This document shows, piece after piece, positions 1 to 39,603 of a DNA stretch of 39,603 nucleotides. This DNA is from a virus (lineage: Duplodnaviria; Heunggongvirae; Uroviricota; Caudoviricetes): positions 1-39,603 of the IMG/VR virus record IMGVR_UViG_2778261067_000006. The stretch is one strand, 5' to 3'. Positions within the stretch are counted from its first letter, which is position 1, and every line of letters starts with the position of its first letter. The translations under genes were made by a program, and so were the position numbers. The notes under the pieces were generated by a model. That model did no database searches and was not told where the DNA came from. It saw only the letters and a list, made by a program, of their open reading frames with translations.

Positions 1-1248
1 ATGGCACTGAATATACCATTCAGAAATGTGTACTATCGTTTTGCATCCAGTTACTCATTTCTCTTTTTTATTTCCTGGTCGCTGTGGTGGTCGTTATACG
101 CTATTTGGCTGAAAGGACATCTAGGGTTGACTGGGACGGAATTAGGTACACTTTATTCGGTCAACCAGTTTACCAGCATTCTATTTATGATGGTCTACGG
201 CATCGTCCAGGATAAACTCGGTCTGAAGAAACCGCTTATCTGGTGTATGAGTTTCATCCTGGTCTTGACCGGACCGTTTATGATTTACGTTTATGAACCG
301 TTACTGCAAAGCAATTTTTCTGTAGGTCTAATTTTGGGGGCGCTCTTTTTTGGCTTGGGGTATCTGGCGGGCTGCGGTCTGCTTGATAGCTTCACCGAAA
401 AAATGGCACGAAATTTTCATTTCGAATATGGAACAGCGCGCGCCTGGGGATCTTTTGGCTATGCGATTGGCGCGTTCTTTGCTGGCATATTTTTCAGTAT
501 CAGTCCCCATATCAACTTCTGGTTGGTTTCGCTATTTGGCGCTGTATTTATGATGATCAACATGCGTTTTAAATATCAGGATCAGCAGTGCGTAGCGGCA
601 GATGCGGGAGGGGTAAAAAAAGAGGATTTTATTGCAGTTTTCAAGGATCGAAACTTCTGGATTTTCGTCATATTTATTGTGGGGACGTGGTCTTTCTATA
701 ACATTTTTGATCAACAGCTCTTTCCTGTTTTTTATGCAGGTTTATTCGAATCACACGATGTAGGAACGCGCCTGTATGGTTATCTCAACTCATTCCAGGT
801 TGTACTCGAAGCGCTGTGCATGGCCATTATTCCTTTCTTTGTTAATCGGGTAGGGCCAAAAAATGCATTACTTATCGGTGTTGTGATTATGGCGTTGCGT
901 ATTCTTTCCTGCGCACTGTTCGTTAATCCCTGGATTATTTCATTAGTGAAGCTGTTACATGCCATTGAGGTTCCACTGTGTGTCATTTCCGTCTTCAAAT
1001 ACAGCGTGGCAAACTTTGATAAGCGCCTGTCGTCGACGATCTTTCTGATTGGTTTTCAAATTGCCAGTTCGTTGGGGATTGTGTTGCTTTCAACGCCGAC
1101 TGGAATACTCTTTGACCATGCAGGTTACCAGACGGTTTTCTTCGTAATTTCGGGTATTGTCTGCCTGATGTTGTTATTTGGCATTTTCTTCCTGAGTAAA
1201 AAACGTGAGCAAATGGTGATGGAAACGCCTGTACCTTCTGCAATATAG
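1..1248 (+). CDS. MFS permease of the LacY/HcaT-like (oligosaccharide:H+ symporter) type; host flank
   Basis: Complete 415-aa ORF starting at base 1 with many hydrophobic segments. The N-terminal region (FISWSLWWSLYAIWLKG...) resembles LacY and HcaT as I remember them. No phage context. Confidence 0.7.
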   Translation: MALNIPFRNVYYRFASSYSFLFFISWSLWWSLYAIWLKGHLGLTGTELGTLYSVNQFTSILFMMVYGIVQDKLGLKKPLIWCMSFILVLTGPFMIYVYEPLLQSNFSVGLILGALFFGLGYLAGCGLLDSFTEKMARNFHFEYGTARAWGSFGYAIGAFFAGIFFSISPHINFWLVSLFGAVFMMINMRFKYQDQQCVAADAGGVKKEDFIAVFKDRNFWIFVIFIVGTWSFYNIFDQQLFPVFYAGLFESHDVGTRLYGYLNSFQVVLEALCMAIIPFFVNRVGPKNALLIGVVIMALRILSCALFVNPWIISLVKLLHAIEVPLCVISVFKYSVANFDKRLSSTIFLIGFQIASSLGIVLLSTPTGILFDHAGYQTVFFVISGIVCLMLLFGIFFLSKKREQMVMETPVPSAI

Positions 1249-1683
1249 ACGTAAACTCATTCCGGTTGTTGTCGATAGCTCTATATCCCTCAACCGGAAA
1301 ATAATAATACCAAAATGCTTAGCGCGGCTAATAATCGCCTAATCCAAACGCCTCATTCATGTTCTGGAACAGTCGCTCAAATGTACTCAGGATACGCGGT
1401 TCGCTGATTTCCAGGATATTGTCGTAATTCAGCGACCTGTCCCGTGTATCACGGGCCTGCTAATCCATCAAGGAATGCATTGCGGAGTGAAGTATCGAGT
1501 CAAGCCAGATTTCGCGATCAGGATTCTGTGTGATGATTACATTGCCAGGCCCGGGGCTGTTTAGTCATCGCCGCACAGTGCTGAGATTTCAACCTGTTGC
1601 AGGGAAAATGAGTAGATTTAGGGCAAGTGTGCTGCCAAACCCAACTTTTACGCGGGGAAGGTAGATTTCGTTGGAAGGATAAA

Positions 1684-1698
1684 TGGTGTCCCCTGCAG
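1684..1698 (-). other. 3'-terminal tRNA fragment (CTGCAGGGGACACCA on the minus strand); putative attR core
   Basis: The minus strand reads CTGCAGGGGACACCA, which matches the acceptor 3' strand plus discriminator and CCA of enterobacterial tRNA-Arg (argW-like) as I recall it. No upstream tRNA body is present, so this is a fragment. Confidence 0.45.
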
Positions 1699-32438: not shown

Positions 32439-34282
32439 TGAAAGTAACTGCAAACGGTAAGACATTTACCTTTCCTGATGGTACGAGCACCGAAGATATT
32501 GGCACCGCCATTGATGAGTATTTTGCTGGTCAGGCTGTTCAGCAACAAACAGTTAATCAGGCCAATAATGCACCAACACGGGAAGAACCATCATTGATGC
32601 AACAAGCTGGCGATTGGCTCACTGGTGGTCAAAGTGCAGGGCAAATTGCAGAACAAGCTGGTCGTGGTCTGGTAAACATACCATTTGACGTATTGCAGGG
32701 CGGCGCAAGTCTGATTAATGCAATCAGTCAGGGGCTTGGTGGCCCCAAGGTTTTGGATGATGTTTATCGTCCAGTAGACAGACCGACAGACTCCTACGCA
32801 CAAGCCGGTGAAACAATTGGTGGGTATTTAGTTCCAGGAGTTGGAACGGCAGGAAGCATGGCTATTGGATCACTGGCAGAGGCCGCAAATCAGAAAGGCG
32901 ATTTCGCACAAAATGCAGCTAAAAATGCCGGAGTTAACCTTGCCGCTCAGGGTGTTCTTTCCGCAGCAGCAAAGGGAATAGGGCGTGGAATAACGGCTAT
33001 AAAAGGTGATATTGCGCCAGAAGTGGCGAAGAAAATTGCCACATCAGAATCGATGGGCGTGACACCAATGACATCTGATGTTATCCCGCCGAAAAATGCT
33101 TTCACTCGTAGCCTTACTCAGGATGCCGAGGGGGCTTTGCTCGGGACAGGCTCAAAGCGAGCGGAGCAATATGCAACGCGTAGTAAGCTGGTAAGCAATT
33201 ATTTTGACCGTTTTGGTGAGTACAACCCTGATGATGTGGTGAAATCTCTGACCACCACGTTAAGGGGGCGGAAGGATGCCGCTGGCGCTGTTATCAATGA
33301 CGTCACCAATAAAATGGGTAATGCCGCAGTTGATACCACAAATACCATGAATGCTCTGAATACAGCGATCGCAAGACAGGAACGGCTTGGGACGTCTGCC
33401 AATCAAAGCCTGCTTACATCCTTGCGTAACCTACGTGAAGAATTAGCAAACCCTGCAACTGATTTGGATGTTACGTTTGATCTCTTGCGTCAGCACAGAA
33501 CAGCATTTAGATCTAATGTTCAGGGAGATGCTATGGTCTTCCCCAACCAGGCAAAAGCAGCTACCAATATGGTAGAGAATGCAATGTCAAAAGACCTTCG
33601 TAACGCAGTTGCAAAAAACCTCGGTGCGTCAGACGCAGCAAAATACCTTAAAGCAAATTCCGATTATGCAAACGTTTATAATAAGGTGCTTAATAAAAAC
33701 ATTGCCAACAAGCTCAACAAGGCAAGCAGTGAAGCCAGTCCTGAACTTATAAATACCGTTGTATTAAGCAGAAAACCATCTGACGTGAAACGAATCTGGA
33801 GCGCACTGGATGATAAGGGGAAAGATGCTATGCGTGCAGCTTACGTCAGCAAAATAGCGGAAAAGGCCGGGGACTCTCCAGCCAAGTTCATCACTGAAGT
33901 TAATAAGCTGAAATCTCAGTCAGGCGGTGAAATTTACAACACTATTTTTTCTGGAAAGCACATGAAAGAGCTTGATGCTCTTCATGAAGTTCTACAGCAA
34001 ACAGCAAGGTCAGACACCGCAAATGTAGTAACTCAGACGGGGCAATCGCAAGCCAACAGGATAAGGACGATTGGCGCAACTGCGACTCTTGGCGTATCAA
34101 TGGGGCTTGAGGCTGGTTTCGGTGCAATGATGCGCTTGTATGAGTCAAAAGCAGCAAGGAATGCTCTCTTACGTTTGGCAAACACCAAAGCAGGAACACC
34201 AGCCTATGAAAGAGCGCTAAATAATGCTGCAAATGCGATACGCCCTATACTTTCAAGCCAAATTACAGCAGAACAGCAATAA
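32435..34282 (+). CDS. Ejection (DNA transfer) protein, gp16 position
   Basis: 615 aa versus about 609 for P22 gp16; synteny. Confidence 0.65.
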
Positions 34283-34295
34283 AAATAAGATATAA

Positions 34296-34781
34296 CTATC
34301 TGATATTGCTGCTACTGTTACATGTTACCGTGTTTCCAAATCCTGAATTGCAGTTTGTATATGTGTCAACGCGTGTTGGGTAAGGTTGAGTTATAACAGG
34401 CTGGCGCGCTTTTTGCTCGATCGCTTGCATTGTGTTTACAGCCTGATAATTCAATAAAGCCTGCTGGAATGCTTGGCTTTGTGCTATTTGTTGTGCTTGT
34501 TCTTGGCTTTGTAATTGAACATAAAGATTCTGAAGTTCAAGTCTTGCCTGTGTGTCACTTATCTTGCCTTCATCGACACCTTGCCCGAGCATCTTCGCAG
34601 CAAGGACATAAAGCTTAGGTGTTGGTGCTGATGCCATGCGTGAGTCGTTCTTCACACTGGCATCAAGGCAATTAGCCATATCGCTAAGCTTTTGATAGCG
34701 TTGTTCGCAACTTGCTTGATAGTCACTTACTTTTGCGCATCCAACCAGCAGAAGCGGGATAATTAACAGTGATTTTTTCAT
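34296..34781 (-). CDS. Lipoprotein (signal peptidase II signal MKKSLLIIPLLLVGC), Gln-rich, several Cys
   Basis: Start at the ATG with AAGGAG SD; lipobox LLVGC; Ala at +2 suggests outer-membrane sorting; convergent with gp16 and co-oriented with mnt. Confidence 0.6.
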   Translation of the reverse strand: MKKSLLIIPLLLVGCAKVSDYQASCEQRYQKLSDMANCLDASVKNDSRMASAPTPKLYVLAAKMLGQGVDEGKISDTQARLELQNLYVQLQSQEQAQQIAQSQAFQQALLNYQAVNTMQAIEQKARQPVITQPYPTRVDTYTNCNSGFGNTVTCNSSSNIR

Positions 34782-34851
34782 ATGGTTAACTCTCCTTAGT
34801 TTTTCACAGGATATCATGAAGGCAATGCCATTTTAGCCGGAAACTAGATTT

Positions 34852-35121
34852 CTATGTTTCCTTTTTATTATTGCTATACATGGTCTTAAGCGTATCAAAG
34901 ACAATTTTCTTAACCATATCAGATTGTTGTTCTGCCATACGCTCTGCATCGTCAATATAAACTGATGCAGAGCTTTGTTTAGCCAATGATTCTTCAATCG
35001 CTGCAATTATCTCTGAGTTCAGCGACCTGTTATTCATCTTCGCACGCTGCTTAATTTTCGCGTGGAGTTCATGCGGAAGTCTCAAGTGAAACTGCGCCTC
35101 GTCGTATTTGCTGTACATCAT
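34852..35121 (-). CDS. mnt: Mnt-like ribbon-helix-helix repressor (Arc/MetJ family)
   Basis: ...NNRSLNSEIIAAIEESL... and ...IDDAERMAEQQSDMVKKIVFDTLKTMY... parallel P22 Mnt (...GRSMNSELLQIVQDAL...NDAERLADEQSELVKKMVFDTLKDLY...). Confidence 0.75.
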   Translation of the reverse strand: MMYSKYDEAQFHLRLPHELHAKIKQRAKMNNRSLNSEIIAAIEESLAKQSSASVYIDDAERMAEQQSDMVKKIVFDTLKTMYSNNKKET

Positions 35122-35239
35122 CAATGCCTCACCAAATGGGTGGAATGGCATCGTAACCTACTGGATAAATACTCAATAGTACCATTTCGGTATGTAACCA
35201 CATCATGGTTGCATCATAACATTCGTCTGGAGCAATGAA

Positions 35240-37069
35240 ATGTCAGATATCACCGCAAATGTTGTGGTAAGCATGCCTTCGCAACTCTTCACTATGGCGC
35301 GTTCTTTTAAAGCCGTGGCTAATGGCAAAATTTATATCGGAAAAATTGACACTGACCCGGTAAATCCTGAAAACCAGATTCAGGTCTATGTTGAGAACGA
35401 AGACGGTTCTCACGTTCCTGTTGCACAGCCAATCATCATTAACGCTGGCGGGTATCCTGTATATAACGGACAGATTGCCAAATTCGTAACTGTGCAAGGC
35501 CATTCTATGGCTGTTTATGATGCGTACGGTGCGCAGCAGTTTTATTTTCCGAATGTGCTGAAGTATGACCCTGATCAGCTAAGAGTTGATTTATATGGCA
35601 TTTACGGTTCTACGCTTATAGGATGGGCAACATATGAAGATATAAGAAATTACTCAGGTAATGGCGAGATAATAAATTGCAGAGGTAGAAGTTATAAAAA
35701 TGATAATGGATGTGGTTTTTTTGTTGTTGATAAAATAGACACATCAGCACAAGATAATGACGGAACAATATTAGTTGATCTCCTTGGGAGAAGATGGAAA
35801 AGACAATTTGCAGGAGATATAAACGTTTCATGGTTTCTTGATGGAAACGGTCCTGATGTAAATTCATCAATTGGGTTTCAGAATTGCATTAATGCCTACC
35901 CGCACTCAAGGATTTTAATTCCTTTCGCACCAGATGGTTATTATTTTTTTAATGAGGTTGTTGAGCCGCAGAGTTCATCTTTTCAATTGATTTGTTGCGA
36001 CGGAATGCAAGTGAATAATCAACAGTTGATTTACGTTAATTTCAACGGGGCAGCATTCAAGTGTGAGTCAACAAATACAACTTTTACCAAGTATCAGGGA
36101 ATTCGTTTTGAGACGGACAAGGAGTCTTATCCTTTAGCACAAGCTATACGTAATGATGGGTTTTTAGTGCATGGGGAAATTAAAAATATAACTGTAAAAA
36201 ATTTCTCTAGCAAGGCAATACAGATAAACGGATGTAATTGTTGCAATTATGAGCAGGTTCTTATCCAGTTCAATGATGATTTTGGTCTTTTCACTCTTGC
36301 AGGTGCGGCTAATACATTCGACAGAATAGTCGGTGATAATAATAACGGTGGAGTTATGTACTCAGTCGGAGCATCTAACGCATATAGAAACTTATACTCC
36401 GAGGATTGCTGCAAAACCAACGTTAGCGCTTCTGACACAAATCCAGAGTTTTATTTCGGAGGTGATTCCCATACTGTTACAAATATCTCCATAAACTCCT
36501 ACCCCGGGAACGCCACACCTCCGGTTAAACTAGATTTCTGCCGCAATATGACAATGATTGGCGCATCCAATAAATCATCAACAGCGCCTTCATATTCATA
36601 TGAGATAGAGTTGACTAATCAGGATTCAAGTTTAACGCTTATCAACAGTTCCGATATACGCATTAAACCAGGCGTTGATTCTAAAAACACGATAAAAATA
36701 GATGCTGGTTACGCATCTTTATCTCCATCAATAGTTGTTGGTGGATATGGAAGAGATATAATAAAAAATACACCAATATCAACAGCGTGCTTCTCATCCG
36801 ATGGCACAATATTAGAGGCAAATGGTATAGCAAGGGTTGAATACAACACCACCGGAACTTATTCTATATATATGGCAGAACAGGTTAATAATGCTGAAGG
36901 AATTAGGGTTATAGGTAGTGCTGACGCGGAAGGATATGATTATTTTGTAGTTGTTTCTGAAAAAGGAAGCTTTAGAACAAATTCATCAGTAAGAATTGAA
37001 ACCAGAGATACTGCTGGAAACCTAGTTTCACCAAAACATGTTTCTGTGGCTATTTATGGATCTGTATGA
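35240..37069 (+). CDS. Tailspike: conserved P22-type N-terminal head-binding domain with a divergent receptor-binding/enzymatic domain
   Basis: First ~115 aa ([59 protein letters not shown]...VLKYDPDQ) nearly match P22 gp9; the remainder is unrelated and visibly AT-rich. Confidence 0.85.
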
Positions 37070-37132
37070 TATGTATTGATTGTGGTTGCATTGTAATTAC
37101 ATCTATTTTTATATTTACGCATATATTCTTAA

Positions 37133-37169
37133 AACAAGCCACCTTTTAACAAGGTGACTTGTTTTTTAT
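37133..37169. terminator. Terminator hairpin between convergent tailspike and acyltransferase genes
   Basis: AACAAGCCACC-(loop)-GGTGACTTGTT followed by TTTTTAT; A-run on the other side. Confidence 0.5.
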
Positions 37170-37170
37170 G

Positions 37171-38232
37171 TTATCTTAGTATTATCCTCGCTATTTTAGC
37201 ACATGGTGCTTCAATCAACATATGTATGACCCATGCTATCGTTATAAACAAAATTAGAAGAAGCGACATTTTTGGAAATCCATGCATATTGCTTATATAT
37301 GGGATGCTGTACATGTATTTATTCAAGGCGTTATAAACAACCAAATGCGACAGATAAAGAGAATACGATATATTGGCAAAAAACATTAAAATTCTGTAAG
37401 TTCTAATGCCGTTTGTTATCTCAATTGATAAAAATGATAGAATAAGAATAAAACACCCAATCCCAACTTTATCAATTCCATGCCCATATTCAGGTGGCGA
37501 TATTATCATTATTATTGATAGCAGCAGCGCTAATATTTGCAAAGGAGAAATGAAGTTTCTTTTTATTGTGATGTTATTTTTTATAAACAAAAAAACATTA
37601 CACATAAGCATACCGATAACAAACTCAATCATCATCTGCGATGATGTTATCTTTACTATCGATTCTAGAGGCCCGTTTATGTTAATTGATGCGTAAGCAG
37701 AATAATCGCCGCTGTTATTGAAAATGAAGTTATTTATCACAAATAAAGTCAGTATAAAAACCGAACAAACAAATGCTCTGAATTTATGAGATATTAACAT
37801 TGATATTGTAAATATAAAATAAAACACAACCTCATAAGATAGGGTCCACGCTGCTGACACCATAGAATATCCATAGAATGGAGCTATAGATGAATAATCA
37901 TATTGTATGAAAAAAAGCGATTTATATAAATCTAAGGTGGTGTAGCTATTTATTGATAAAGCATAACTTATGAGAATGGCAATCAAATAAATCGGATATA
38001 TTCTAAAAAATCTCTTTATTGCAAATGATTTTATTGATGAGTCATTCTGTGTTGAAAAAACTATTACAAAGCCGCTTATCATAAAAAAAAGATCTACGCC
38101 AAAGTATCCATAGTCAAAAAGAATATCTCCTAAATTTTCCTGAGCATATGCTCCTGCAATTATCGATCTCAGATGAAAAAGAACTACAAAAAGAGCCGCA
38201 ACACCTCTAAGATAATGTATTGAAAGTACCAT
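37171..38232 (-). CDS. Acyltransferase-3 family integral membrane protein (Oac/OafA-like O-antigen acetyltransferase)
   Basis: 353 aa, about ten hydrophobic helices, N-terminal IHYLRGVAALFVVLFH motif; strongly AT-rich; sits between tailspike and integrase as oac does in Sf6. Confidence 0.75.
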   Translation of the reverse strand: MVLSIHYLRGVAALFVVLFHLRSIIAGAYAQENLGDILFDYGYFGVDLFFMISGFVIVFSTQNDSSIKSFAIKRFFRIYPIYLIAILISYALSINSYTTLDLYKSLFFIQYDYSSIAPFYGYSMVSAAWTLSYEVVFYFIFTISMLISHKFRAFVCSVFILTLFVINNFIFNNSGDYSAYASININGPLESIVKITSSQMMIEFVIGMLMCNVFLFIKNNITIKRNFISPLQILALLLSIIMIISPPEYGHGIDKVGIGCFILILSFLSIEITNGIRTYRILMFFANISYSLYLSHLVVYNALNKYMYSIPYISNMHGFPKMSLLLILFITIAWVIHMLIEAPCAKIARIILR

Positions 38233-38445
38233 AAAATATCACTATTGGTTGCTATGTTTAAAGGTTCTACATTATAGTCTTTAGCTATTATCACATCAAT
38301 AAACTTAACAATAATGCACTTGTCAAACCAATAGATAAGGTGTTTTTGTGAACCTCAATGAATATTTGAGTAATTTTTGTTGCGTTAATAGCATAAATAT
38401 TGCACTGGCTTTCTAAGCTTTGCGTTCTTAGCTAGTTAAGTCCGT

Positions 38446-39603
38446 TCACTCTACCTTCCCATCAATCCAGTCCGCCCACCACTGCATCATCTCCCTGCGC
38501 TTATCGAAATACTGCGCATGGTTGTAAATACCGCGCACAGATCCGCCGTTGGCATGTGCCAGTTGCACTTCAATAGCATCAGCAGGCCATTCGTGCTCGT
38601 TCATAATCGTGCTGAATTCATGCCTGAATCCGTGACCGCTTTCCAGCCCTTCATAGCCAATTTGTTTGATCACAAGCAATACCGCGTTCTCGCAGATTGG
38701 CTTCTTCTTATCGTTGCGCCCGGCAAAAACAAACTCTGAGACTGGTTTGGTGATTGAGCTTAGCGTAGTGAGAAGTTCAACCACCTTGTCTGACATCGGG
38801 ACCACATGAATTTTGCGTCCCTTCATCACACTGGCGTCGATGGTGATAATCCTGTTTTCAAAATCGACGTTCTTCCATAGCATGGAACGAAGCTCTTTTG
38901 TTCTTAGGGCTGTGTAGCGTAAAACTTTGGTCGCAATGAGCGATACGATACTTCCTGAAAATGTTGCCAGTGCTTTGTTGAATGCAGGGATCTGGTCTGC
39001 TGGAAGAAACGGGAAGTTCTTCTTGCGGTATCCCTTCATGGCGTCAGCAAGGTCAGGTGCTGGGTTATATTTAGCCCTTCCGGTGACAATAGCGTAACGG
39101 AAAACCTCGCCGCATCTTCTGCGTGCTTTGTTGGCTCGCTCCATTGCACCGCGATCTTCAAATCTGCGGATTACTTCCAGCAGTTGCATCGGCTCAATAT
39201 CCTGAATTTCAAGGCCGCCGATGATAGGTAAAATGTCGTCATCAAACATTTTTGCAAGTTCAGTTGCATAGCCTACTGACCAGACTTGCTTCTTGTGCTC
39301 GTACCATTCCTTGTAAATCGCACTAAAGGAATTGTTGTTAGACGAAGCCTTTTTCGCTTTTACCGGATCGATGCCAACCGAGATGTCTTTCCTCGCGGTC
39401 CATGCCTTATCCCTTGCCTCCTGCAAAGTCATAAGCGGATATTTTCCTACGGTCAGTATTTTTTCCTTACCGTCAATCTTGTAGCGAAGCTGCCATACCT
39501 TTTTCCCGGATACAGGGACATAAAGGTACAGGCCATTACCATCGAGAAGGCGATATGGTTTTTCTTTCGGCTTTGCTGCTTCAATCTGCTTAACGGTGAG
39601 CAT
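38446..39603 (-). CDS. int: Tyrosine integrase (P22/Sf6/CPS-53 IntS-like)
   Basis: 385 aa with catalytic-region motifs (…HGFRHEF…, …RGIYNHAQY); N-terminus MLTVKQIEAAKPKEKPYRLLDGNGLYLYV as in IntS-type integrases; start codon is the last base of the window. Confidence 0.9.
   Translation of the reverse strand: MLTVKQIEAAKPKEKPYRLLDGNGLYLYVPVSGKKVWQLRYKIDGKEKILTVGKYPLMTLQEARDKAWTARKDISVGIDPVKAKKASSNNNSFSAIYKEWYEHKKQVWSVGYATELAKMFDDDILPIIGGLEIQDIEPMQLLEVIRRFEDRGAMERANKARRRCGEVFRYAIVTGRAKYNPAPDLADAMKGYRKKNFPFLPADQIPAFNKALATFSGSIVSLIATKVLRYTALRTKELRSMLWKNVDFENRIITIDASVMKGRKIHVVPMSDKVVELLTTLSSITKPVSEFVFAGRNDKKKPICENAVLLVIKQIGYEGLESGHGFRHEFSTIMNEHEWPADAIEVQLAHANGGSVRGIYNHAQYFDKRREMMQWWADWIDGKVE

Follow-up and report, generated by a model that had tools for sequence, protein, structure and literature searches.

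The closest described counterpart of the locus treated here is that of phage Sf6, in which gene 14 (the endorhamnosidase tailspike) is followed by gene 15, oac (OacA), and gene 16, int. The Sf6 annotation runs from the tailspike through a terminator to oac on the opposite strand, a putative oac promoter and int, with attP upstream of int. Acetylation by Sf6 Oac blocks the phage's own endorhamnosidase and confers superinfection immunity (PMC9558356). Here we describe the corresponding segment of a 39,603-nucleotide (nt) stretch of DNA, IMG/VR record IMGVR_UViG_2778261067_000006 (referred to throughout as the window, meaning the whole stretch), which holds a P22-like prophage. In it, a tailspike gene and a neighbouring gene for an acyltransferase-3 (AT3) membrane protein form an AT-rich cassette of about 2.9 kb in front of int. 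We consider it probable, at roughly three chances in four, that this is a host-range and lysogenic-conversion cassette built like Sf6 gene 14/oac/int with different contents. The Sf6-type serotype-conversion layout is known, whereas the tailspike tip and the acyltransferase are new.

The three genes have the same order and orientation in Sf6 and in the window, with a terminator and a promoter at equivalent places. Sf6 also shares the argW-type integrase (int DNA 95.8% identical) and a head-binding domain that is 88% identical over residues 1-118 by BLASTP, with nothing matched beyond; after residue 113-118 the two tailspikes are unrelated. The target of Sf6 is the rhamnose backbone of Shigella flexneri, whereas that of the window is probably an Escherichia coli O-antigen, possibly O126. 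Phages HK620, IME10, CUS-3 and Kapi1 likewise share the anchor domain (89-94% identity in DNA), int and a variable slot between them. In HK620 and CUS-3 the slot holds other tips (that of CUS-3 being an endosialidase), in IME10 a tailspike of 622 amino acids (aa) and then a 488-aa open reading frame (ORF), and in Kapi1 a 791-aa tailspike with only a 34-aa ORF. None of these four phages has the tip or the acyltransferase of the window. The principle of such exchange is already established for Sf6 and other Lederberg- and Uetakeviruses, and the present locus leaves that understanding unchanged.

Layout and composition of the cassette

The tailspike gene (35240-37069, plus strand, 609 aa) and the acyltransferase gene (minus strand, 353 aa) are convergent and are followed by int, also on the minus strand; the coordinates of the features are collected in Table 1. 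At the left junction, nucleotide identity to Sf6, IME10 and Kapi1 stands at 25-30 per 30 nt up to ...AAGTATGACCCTGATCAG (encoding KYDPDQ, codon 113, nt 35578) and then drops to chance level. At the right junction, similarity to Sf6, HK620, CUS-3, IME10 and others returns between 38400 and 38453, at the int stop codon, and the int DNA of these four phages is 95-97% identical to that of the window. Judged by these alignments, the cassette exactly occupies the slot between the anchor domain and int.

Between these borders lies a discrete segment of foreign composition. The G+C content (GC) of the cassette (35582-38445) is 0.339 against 0.475 in the remaining window, and among 3272 equally long segments to its left the lowest value was 0.420 (mean 0.478, standard deviation 0.027), which places the cassette at z = -5.2. 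Codons 1-114 of the tailspike gene have a GC of 0.444, the remainder of the gene 0.372, the spacer between the convergent genes 0.267, the acyltransferase gene 0.308, the spacer between it and int 0.305, and int 0.477. The GC at third codon positions (GC3) is 0.28 in the tailspike remainder and 0.285 in the acyltransferase gene, compared with 0.53 in int. The corresponding slot of Sf6 is only mildly AT-rich (0.42-0.44, against 0.31-0.37 in the window). A preliminary description of this DNA had pictured a P22-type N-terminus followed, from about residue 120, by unrelated protein, with AT-rich DNA extending through the acyltransferase gene. The conserved start, the loss of similarity and the AT-richness of both genes all stand, and GC is plainly not uniform across the region; the break itself falls slightly earlier, at residue 113/114.

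Low GC could in principle reflect nothing more than the amino-acid make-up of membrane and beta-helix proteins, with no foreign origin or recent exchange. AT3 proteins do contain much Ile, Phe, Leu, Tyr and Asn, amino acids with AT-rich codons, and homologous acyltransferases are AT-rich everywhere (GC 0.227 in Proteus, 0.33-0.35 in Escherichia marmotae). However, both cassette genes have a GC3 of about 0.28, where int has 0.53 and gp16 has 0.385, and the non-coding spacers are equally AT-rich (0.27 and 0.31), so the shift does not come from amino-acid content alone. Moreover, homologs of the tip in other phages, 48-72% identical as proteins, have a GC of 0.41-0.45, and the cassette lies within a sharp-ended block of near-identity (see below) that is a direct sign of recent exchange. 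We therefore rejected amino-acid composition as the cause on the grounds of GC3, spacer GC and block identity, and consider it scarcely credible.

Signals for transcription can be placed in both spacers. The hairpin that lies between the convergent genes, preceded by an A-run and followed by a T-run, folds at -14.5 kcal/mol on the plus strand (z -5.4) and at -20.9 kcal/mol on the minus strand (z -6.8), and 0 of 200 shuffled sequences were as stable; a terminator-like site is predicted at 37140-37156. It is probably a bidirectional intrinsic terminator shared by the two genes. The sigma-70-like site in front of the acyltransferase gene is the best match of the promoter scan (10 of 12 positions), and the predicted promoter would let the acyltransferase be expressed in a lysogen independently of the phage late genes. 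An Rfam search at E <= 1 over 34000-39603, spacers included, returned no RNA element. Antisense ORFs of 50-96 aa occur within both cassette genes and were treated as chance ORFs in AT-rich DNA.

Exchange among P22-like prophages

The exact 609-aa tailspike (cluster P0001) was found on at least 10 assembled contigs. On all contigs of sufficient length the acyltransferase comes next, then int and the host genes yfdC and mlaA. Nine contigs besides the window (L001-L009) share the cassette at 99.6% identity, on upstream backbones that vary: gp16 is 615, 660, 749 or 797 aa long, gp20 and mnt come in different alleles, and only some of the backbones have a 161-aa ORF. The exact tailspike is carried by the sequencing runs SRR8575553, ERR6160666, ERR9716684, ERR1618078, SRR28368676, SRR27226449, SRR14581022 and SRR27680472, and the cassette by one complete E. 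coli genome.

Divergence was counted between the window and the sister contigs together with the one complete genome. The cassette (35579-38445) shows 11-13 mismatches in 2867 nt (0.4%), compared with 20-35 mismatches in the 339 nt of the head-binding segment (6-10%) and 32-40 in the 1158 nt of int (about 3%). Such low divergence of the cassette, combined with higher divergence of its flanks on varied backbones, indicates that the cassette moves as one block. The unit actually exchanged ends inside the conserved arms, beginning about 40 nt inside the anchor segment and ending about 295 nt inside int. On the left the last mismatches of the flank are at 35532/35535; on the right the single difference between 38409 and 38739 is at 38508, and frequent mismatches set in at 38740. 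Furthermore, three different alleles of the N-terminal anchor are joined to the same tip. These edges are the footprint of homologous crossovers in two conserved arms and give direct support for a swap. Crossovers of this kind, in the head-binding segment and in int, would carry the cassette as a block among P22-like prophages, and the locus is a clean natural example of a P22-like host-range cassette swapped through anchor-domain and integrase sequences.

The tailspike

The anchor is a complete P22-type head-binding domain. Pfam Head_binding (PF09008) matches residues 1-113 over all 113 positions (E 8e-67) and is the sole Pfam match in the 609-aa protein, while a sequence search of the PDB returned the N-terminal domains of the Sf6 and P22 tailspikes (E 4e-64 to 1e-44). 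By megablast, 28 phage records match the tailspike gene over nt 1 to about 340 only, at 84-94% identity. Anchor-domain DNA is matched in 1108 of 5426 complete E. coli genomes.

Beyond the anchor, the AlphaFold2 (AF2) monomer model of the tip (predicted local distance difference test, pLDDT, 78; predicted TM-score 0.71) is mostly beta, with a small beta domain at the C-terminus. Foldseek linked it at probability 1.0 to more than 40 tailspike and depolymerase chains. The top matches, at 8-15% identity, were the tailspikes or depolymerases of lytic phages: Acinetobacter AM24 (5w5p), Klebsiella K2-2 TSP (8iq9), CBA120 TSP2 (5w6p) and Depo32 (7vyv). These share the right-handed beta-helix fold (TM-score up to 0.57, query-normalised) and differ in having other N-terminal adaptors and different or unknown specificities. 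The Sf6 and HK620 tailspikes ranked lower, Sf6 at rank 31 (E 2e-6). By its predicted fold, then, the tip (residues 115-609) is a beta-helix tailspike depolymerase, in agreement with the preliminary description, which had expected a receptor-binding domain of the polysaccharide-degrading type.

The start of the beta-helix, residues ~115-250, is a widely shared module (PF27114, 'Phage_tail_beta'). This family is listed for every member of the tip family in precomputed annotations; the Pfam scan of the tailspike itself gave no model past residue 113. PHROG tailspike families extend to residue ~250 at most, and the PDB sequence matches 6tgf and 5w5p span residues 130-246. The remainder of the tip is rare. 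Megablast and tblastn searches of 50,697 phage records did not find the tip in any deposited phage, the best tblastn matches being Acinetobacter tailspikes that are 27-30% identical over the first ~200 residues. Twelve proteins among 5.8 billion match residues 115-609, nine of them full length at 47-100% identity. A profile search of 1.84 billion representatives gave 6212 matches, most of which cover only the first 100-130 residues after the adaptor (the PF27114 module), and about 16 of the best 150 extend to the C-terminus.

The most conserved pattern of the family is LYSEDCCK (residues 385-392), with two adjacent cysteines, which is invariant in 9/9 aligned members at 47-72% identity. When used as a search pattern it found no relative of the tip in 185,579 species-representative genomes and only two in IMG/VR (42% and 29% identity). 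Twelve Asp or Glu residues are invariant in the nine-member family, among them E388 and D389 of this motif, which are candidate catalytic acids. Full-length relatives of the tip occur behind three different adaptors, on an N4-like contig (L010, 72%), a siphovirus contig (L011, 70%) and a T7-like contig (L023, 48%), and exchange of receptor-binding domains across phage types is the usual pattern (PMC10408124). The GC of the tip-coding DNA compared with its own flanks is 0.41 against 0.42 in L010, 0.43 against 0.50 in L011 and 0.45 against 0.51 in L023.

The acyltransferase

The convergent gene had been described beforehand as an acyltransferase-3 gene, and a full-length match to Acyl_transf_3 (PF01757) agrees: residues 3-337 align with profile positions 2-325/326 (E 1.1e-29, 104 bits against a cut-off of 31). 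The protein also matches phrog_3333 'O-acetyltransferase' at 2.7e-64. It lacks an SGNH domain and is thus AT3-only, as is Oac. NCBIfam has no family for the tailspike or for the acyltransferase.

The motifs expected of such an enzyme are in place. AT3 proteins are marked by R-X10-H in transmembrane helix (TMH) 1 (Arg14/His25 of OafB) and by RXXR at TMH3 (PMC9833829). In the window protein R9 and H20 are separated by exactly 10 residues and, like R74, do not vary among 44 sequences; R74-F-F-R77 is the RXXR motif. Conserved across alignments of 16 and 44 sequences are R9-X10-H20, FFMISG 49-54, R74-F-F-R77/RIYP, W129-T130, S289-Y-S-L-Y293 and E341. The motifs critical for Oac are FFxISG (SG52-53), R73/R75-R76 with RIxP, WT141-142 and SYGxY (PMC3467182). 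They align with FFMISG 49-54, KRFFRIYP 73-80, W129-T130 and S289-Y-S-L-Y293. The AF2 model (pLDDT 93.8) has ten long helices (3-25, 34-60, 67-92, 126-147, 152-171, 199-220, 230-244, 253-274, 280-309 and 318-352), with which hydropathy agrees. The best solved structural analogs are the human HGSNAT transmembrane acetyl-CoA acetyltransferases, and PMC12423673 unifies HGSNAT with AT3. Sequence and model alike indicate an intact AT3 membrane acyltransferase.

Oac and the window protein are both AT3-only and have the same critical motifs, yet they are only 25% identical over 126 of 353 aa (pairwise E 6e-5), and a tblastn search with the acyltransferase at E 1e-3 did not match Sf6. On this comparison the protein is not an Oac ortholog, and we class it only as probably working like Oac. 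Its closest match among the phage records is 32% identical (tblastn). The idea that the cassette might be near-identical to Sf6 or another characterised phage was therefore rejected, as the matches are the anchor domain and distant ones of <=32%; neither cassette gene is near-identical to Sf6 or to any deposited phage.

The nearest proteins outside the acyltransferase's own 99% cluster, from Proteus, Providencia and E. marmotae, share 43-49% identity with it. The 49% relative (P0015) lies inside an O-antigen cluster of Proteus alimentorum, between glycosyltransferases and ugd, and one at 45% lies in a prophage of E. marmotae, where it converges with another tailspike. The AT3 domain, R-X10-H, RXXR and the ten-helix pore architecture are shared with OafA and OafB of Salmonella and with AT3 genes of O-antigen clusters (WbaK, P0015). 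OafA and OafB differ in having a fused periplasmic SGNH domain, whereas the window protein has 353 aa and none; unlike the chromosomal O-antigen-cluster genes, its gene is prophage-borne and lies beside a tailspike.

A contig of E. marmotae type (L015, 5903-11297) carries a siphovirus-type prophage with two Acyl_transf_3 genes (379 and 361 aa) beside a tailspike of 725 aa that has a PF18668 adaptor. It is the 361-aa gene that converges with the tailspike gene, as in the window but on an unrelated phage chassis.

Pairing of the two genes

The relatives of the two genes are found apart. No acyltransferase lies beside the tip relatives of N4-like, T7-like, siphovirus and IMG/VR contigs (29-72% identity) within the fetched flanks of 5-8 kb, and the acyltransferase relatives are found with other tailspikes. 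The deeper histories of the tip and the acyltransferase are therefore separate, and only in this cassette do the two come together. As far as these sequences tell, the pair was assembled from separate sources and now travels together, and the linkage could come in part from lying between two conserved recombination arms. The preliminary description had proposed a swapped-in pair: exchange as a block is borne out by a divergence of 0.4% against 3-10%, but the pairing does not extend beyond this P22-like cassette.

This separation leads to a different view of the acyltransferase, namely that it modifies the O-antigen for the general benefit of host or prophage (antigenic change, defence against other phages), unmatched to the tailspike and linked to it only by the arms. 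Anything lying between the head-binding segment and int would co-transfer, and besides other tailspikes the acyltransferase relatives also keep the company of O-antigen clusters, as expected if the two genes have different histories. Set against this, the phages that carry the tip relatives are apparently of virulent types, to which a conversion gene would be of no use. In Sf6, the well-studied case with the same layout, acetylation blocks the phage's own tailspike, and the tailspike-facing-acyltransferase arrangement recurs in the unrelated E. marmotae prophage. We consider an unmatched acyltransferase unlikely, and favour a tailspike and an acyltransferase that act on the same polysaccharide.

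Host serogroup

Only one of the 5426 complete E. coli genomes contains the cassette, namely strain EM18-18-42, at 98.8% identity and in an IS1-truncated prophage remnant at argW. This strain carries the O126 wzx/wzy cluster, which has no acyltransferase. As typed by wzy, O126 accounts for 7 of the 5426 genomes, so that the chance of a single carrier being O126 is about 0.0013. The association is suggestive and rests on one genome. O126 is a classical enteropathogenic and enteroaggregative serogroup. The composition of the acyltransferase gene (GC 0.308, GC3 0.285) resembles that of enterobacterial O-antigen clusters; the O126 cluster, with a GC of 0.317 and a GC3 of 0.21-0.25, is an example and is similar in composition to the cassette as well. 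The reviews searched gave no data on O-acetylation of the O126 O-antigen.

Of the prophage in EM18-18-42 (L001, NZ_CP063473.1 3143458-3162645), only a P22AR fragment, the tailspike, the acyltransferase and int remain. The tailspike and acyltransferase ORFs are intact and 99.4-99.7% identical to those of the window, which hints that a conversion gene was kept after the prophage decayed.

Proposed function and its alternatives

We propose that the tailspike would dock to the virion through its head-binding domain (residues 1-113), and that its beta-helix part (114-609) would recognise and cleave a polysaccharide on the host surface. This is most likely an O-antigen, that of O126 being a possibility. 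The convergent AT3-only membrane acyltransferase would be expressed from its own promoter-like site, with a terminator hairpin in common with the tailspike gene. In the lysogen it would move acetyl from cytoplasmic acetyl-CoA through the ten-helix pore onto the same polysaccharide. The serotype would thereby be altered, and the lysogen would become a poorer receptor for its own phage and for others using the same receptor.

Several points weigh against this proposal. Serotype conversion and self-exclusion by the two cassette proteins are argued from analogy with Sf6 Oac, as are the substrate and the enzymatic activities, and the likeness to Oac is the distant one given above (25% over 126 aa). 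The absence of an acyltransferase from the flanks of the tip relatives counts here too, and since any DNA between two conserved arms is expected to co-transfer, co-transfer is no proof of a functional match. The region has no excess of promoter-like sites (12 found, 16.3 expected), the site in front of the acyltransferase gene being a consensus match only. The link to O126 is a single genome, in which the prophage is an IS1-truncated remnant. Lastly, capsule depolymerases of Acinetobacter and Klebsiella phages are among the structures that match the tailspike best, and AT3-only enzymes also modify capsules, exopolysaccharides, enterobacterial common antigen (ECA) and secreted products (PMC9558356), so that the acceptor is not fixed by family membership.

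These last observations bear on the possibility that the cassette targets and modifies a capsule or another exopolysaccharide (K antigen, colanic acid, ECA) and not the O-antigen. The top structural matches of the tip are indeed capsule depolymerases (Acinetobacter AM24 and Fri1, Klebsiella K2 tailspikes), phage homologs of the acyltransferase are annotated 'exopolysaccharide production protein', and one PHROG match to the N-terminal part is named 'colanic acid degradation'. However, this last match covers only residues 1-131, which is the anchor, and the structure of the O157-specific CBA120 TSP2 matches the tip equally well. Of the acyltransferase relatives that lie in biosynthetic clusters, the nearest is in one for O-antigen; the one complete genome in which the cassette was found is of a rare O-serogroup (7/5426); and the tailspike types of Lederbergviruses are reported to track O-serogroup (PMC10408124). 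We thus regard a capsular or exopolysaccharide target as very unlikely and retain the O-antigen as the probable one.

A more far-reaching form of the proposal can be put forward only tentatively, with the odds somewhat against it. The cassette would be a self-contained portable unit that pairs receptor recognition with receptor masking for an uncharacterised E. coli O-antigen specificity, possibly O126. Its tip would have a new depolymerase specificity in common with N4-like, T7-like and siphovirus phages, and its acyltransferase would make an O-acetylated O126 variant (a new O-factor) that the O126 cluster does not encode; lysogens would then resist all phages with this tip. Should the main proposal of an O-antigen-directed cassette hold, the tip would be a new O-antigen-specific depolymerase of use in serogroup typing, phage host-range engineering or glycan cutting. 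The acyltransferase would be a new prophage-borne O-acetyltransferase, and the O-antigen variant made by it, not yet on record, would matter for serotyping, for vaccines and for phage therapy of the serogroup in question (possibly O126). The value of the locus lies in a predicted depolymerase specificity that is new and rare, in the new candidate O-acetyltransferase and in a very clean footprint of cassette exchange.

Table 1. Features of the cassette and its conserved arms, in window coordinates.
Feature	Position	Strand	Basis
Tailspike codons 1-113: P22-type head-binding (virion anchor) domain; also conserved left recombination arm	35240..35578	+	Pfam Head_binding
Block of near-identity (~0.4% divergence), the unit actually exchanged, ending inside the conserved arms	35536..38739	.	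Window against L001-L009
Tailspike codons 114-609 and stop: receptor-binding, probable glycan-depolymerase part; beta-helix and C-terminal beta domain	35579..37069	+	AF2, Foldseek
Module at beta-helix start, residues ~115-250, widely shared (PF27114 'Phage_tail_beta')	35582..35989	+	Precomputed annotations
Invariant motif LYSEDCCK, residues 385-392; E388 and D389 candidate catalytic acids	36392..36415	+	Catalytic role putative
Hairpin shared by the two convergent genes, A-run before and T-run after; probable bidirectional intrinsic terminator	37131..37165	.	RNA fold
AT3-only membrane acyltransferase, 353 aa; probable O-antigen O-acetyltransferase (lysogenic-conversion gene)	37171..38232	-	PF01757, phrog_3333
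AT-rich spacer from acyltransferase start to int stop; right end of the cassette of foreign composition	38233..38445	.	GC 0.305; no Rfam match
Sigma-70-like promoter: TTGATG, 17-nt spacer, TATAAT; ~40 nt upstream of the acyltransferase ATG	38271..38299	-	Consensus match only
IntS-type tyrosine integrase (argW tRNA-Arg site); also conserved right recombination arm	38446..39603	-	Pfam Phage_integrase, Phage_int_M, Arm-DNA-bind_3

Prophage backbone and attachment site

Encoded in the window are a P22 portal protein and coat protein, as well as RecT, a DnaB-like helicase and an S24 repressor; the backbone shares 95-96% identity with phages IME10 and HZ41. It is a P22-like (Lederbergvirus-type) prophage integrated at argW. 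The tailspike gene holds the position expected in a P22-like virion module, 3' of the gp7/gp20/gp16 ejection proteins and 5' of int, and P22_gp7, Inj_translocase and Phage_P22_gp16 are found upstream of it in sister contigs. In other contigs int adjoins tRNA-Arg(CCT), yfdC and mlaA. No tRNA genes were found in the window.

The left end of the window (1-1698) is host DNA and not phage. It includes an ORF at 1-1248 (plus strand) for a LacY-family sugar permease of 415 aa (Pfam E 1.8e-191), which may be a sucrose permease of the CscB type. At 1678-1698, attR is marked by 21 nt that repeat the argW 3' end and its flank (GATAAATGGTGTCCCCTGCAG), which places the beginning of the prophage at about 1699 and attL roughly 160 nt past the right end of the window. 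A further exact match of 16 nt, to the adjacent part of the tRNA-Arg (GGAATCGAACCTGCAA), lies at 1992-2007, some 300 nt inside the phage DNA and away from the att core, and could be left over from an earlier att arrangement or have arisen by chance.

Two small genes lie to the left of the tailspike gene. The ORF at 34296-34817 (minus strand, 173 aa), between gp16 and mnt, carries a signal of lipoprotein type (…LLLVGC), and its match to phrog_6067 (unknown function) is at 5.7e-110. Its counterpart is the 161-aa gene of the sister prophages L003-L006, and it is absent from L002 and L008; it is a variable moron and possibly encodes a surface or exclusion protein. The second gene, at 34852-35151 (minus strand), directly upstream of and divergent from the tailspike gene, encodes an Arc/Mnt-type ribbon-helix-helix repressor of 99 aa, the alleles of which in sister prophages are 86, 88, 97 and 99 aa long.

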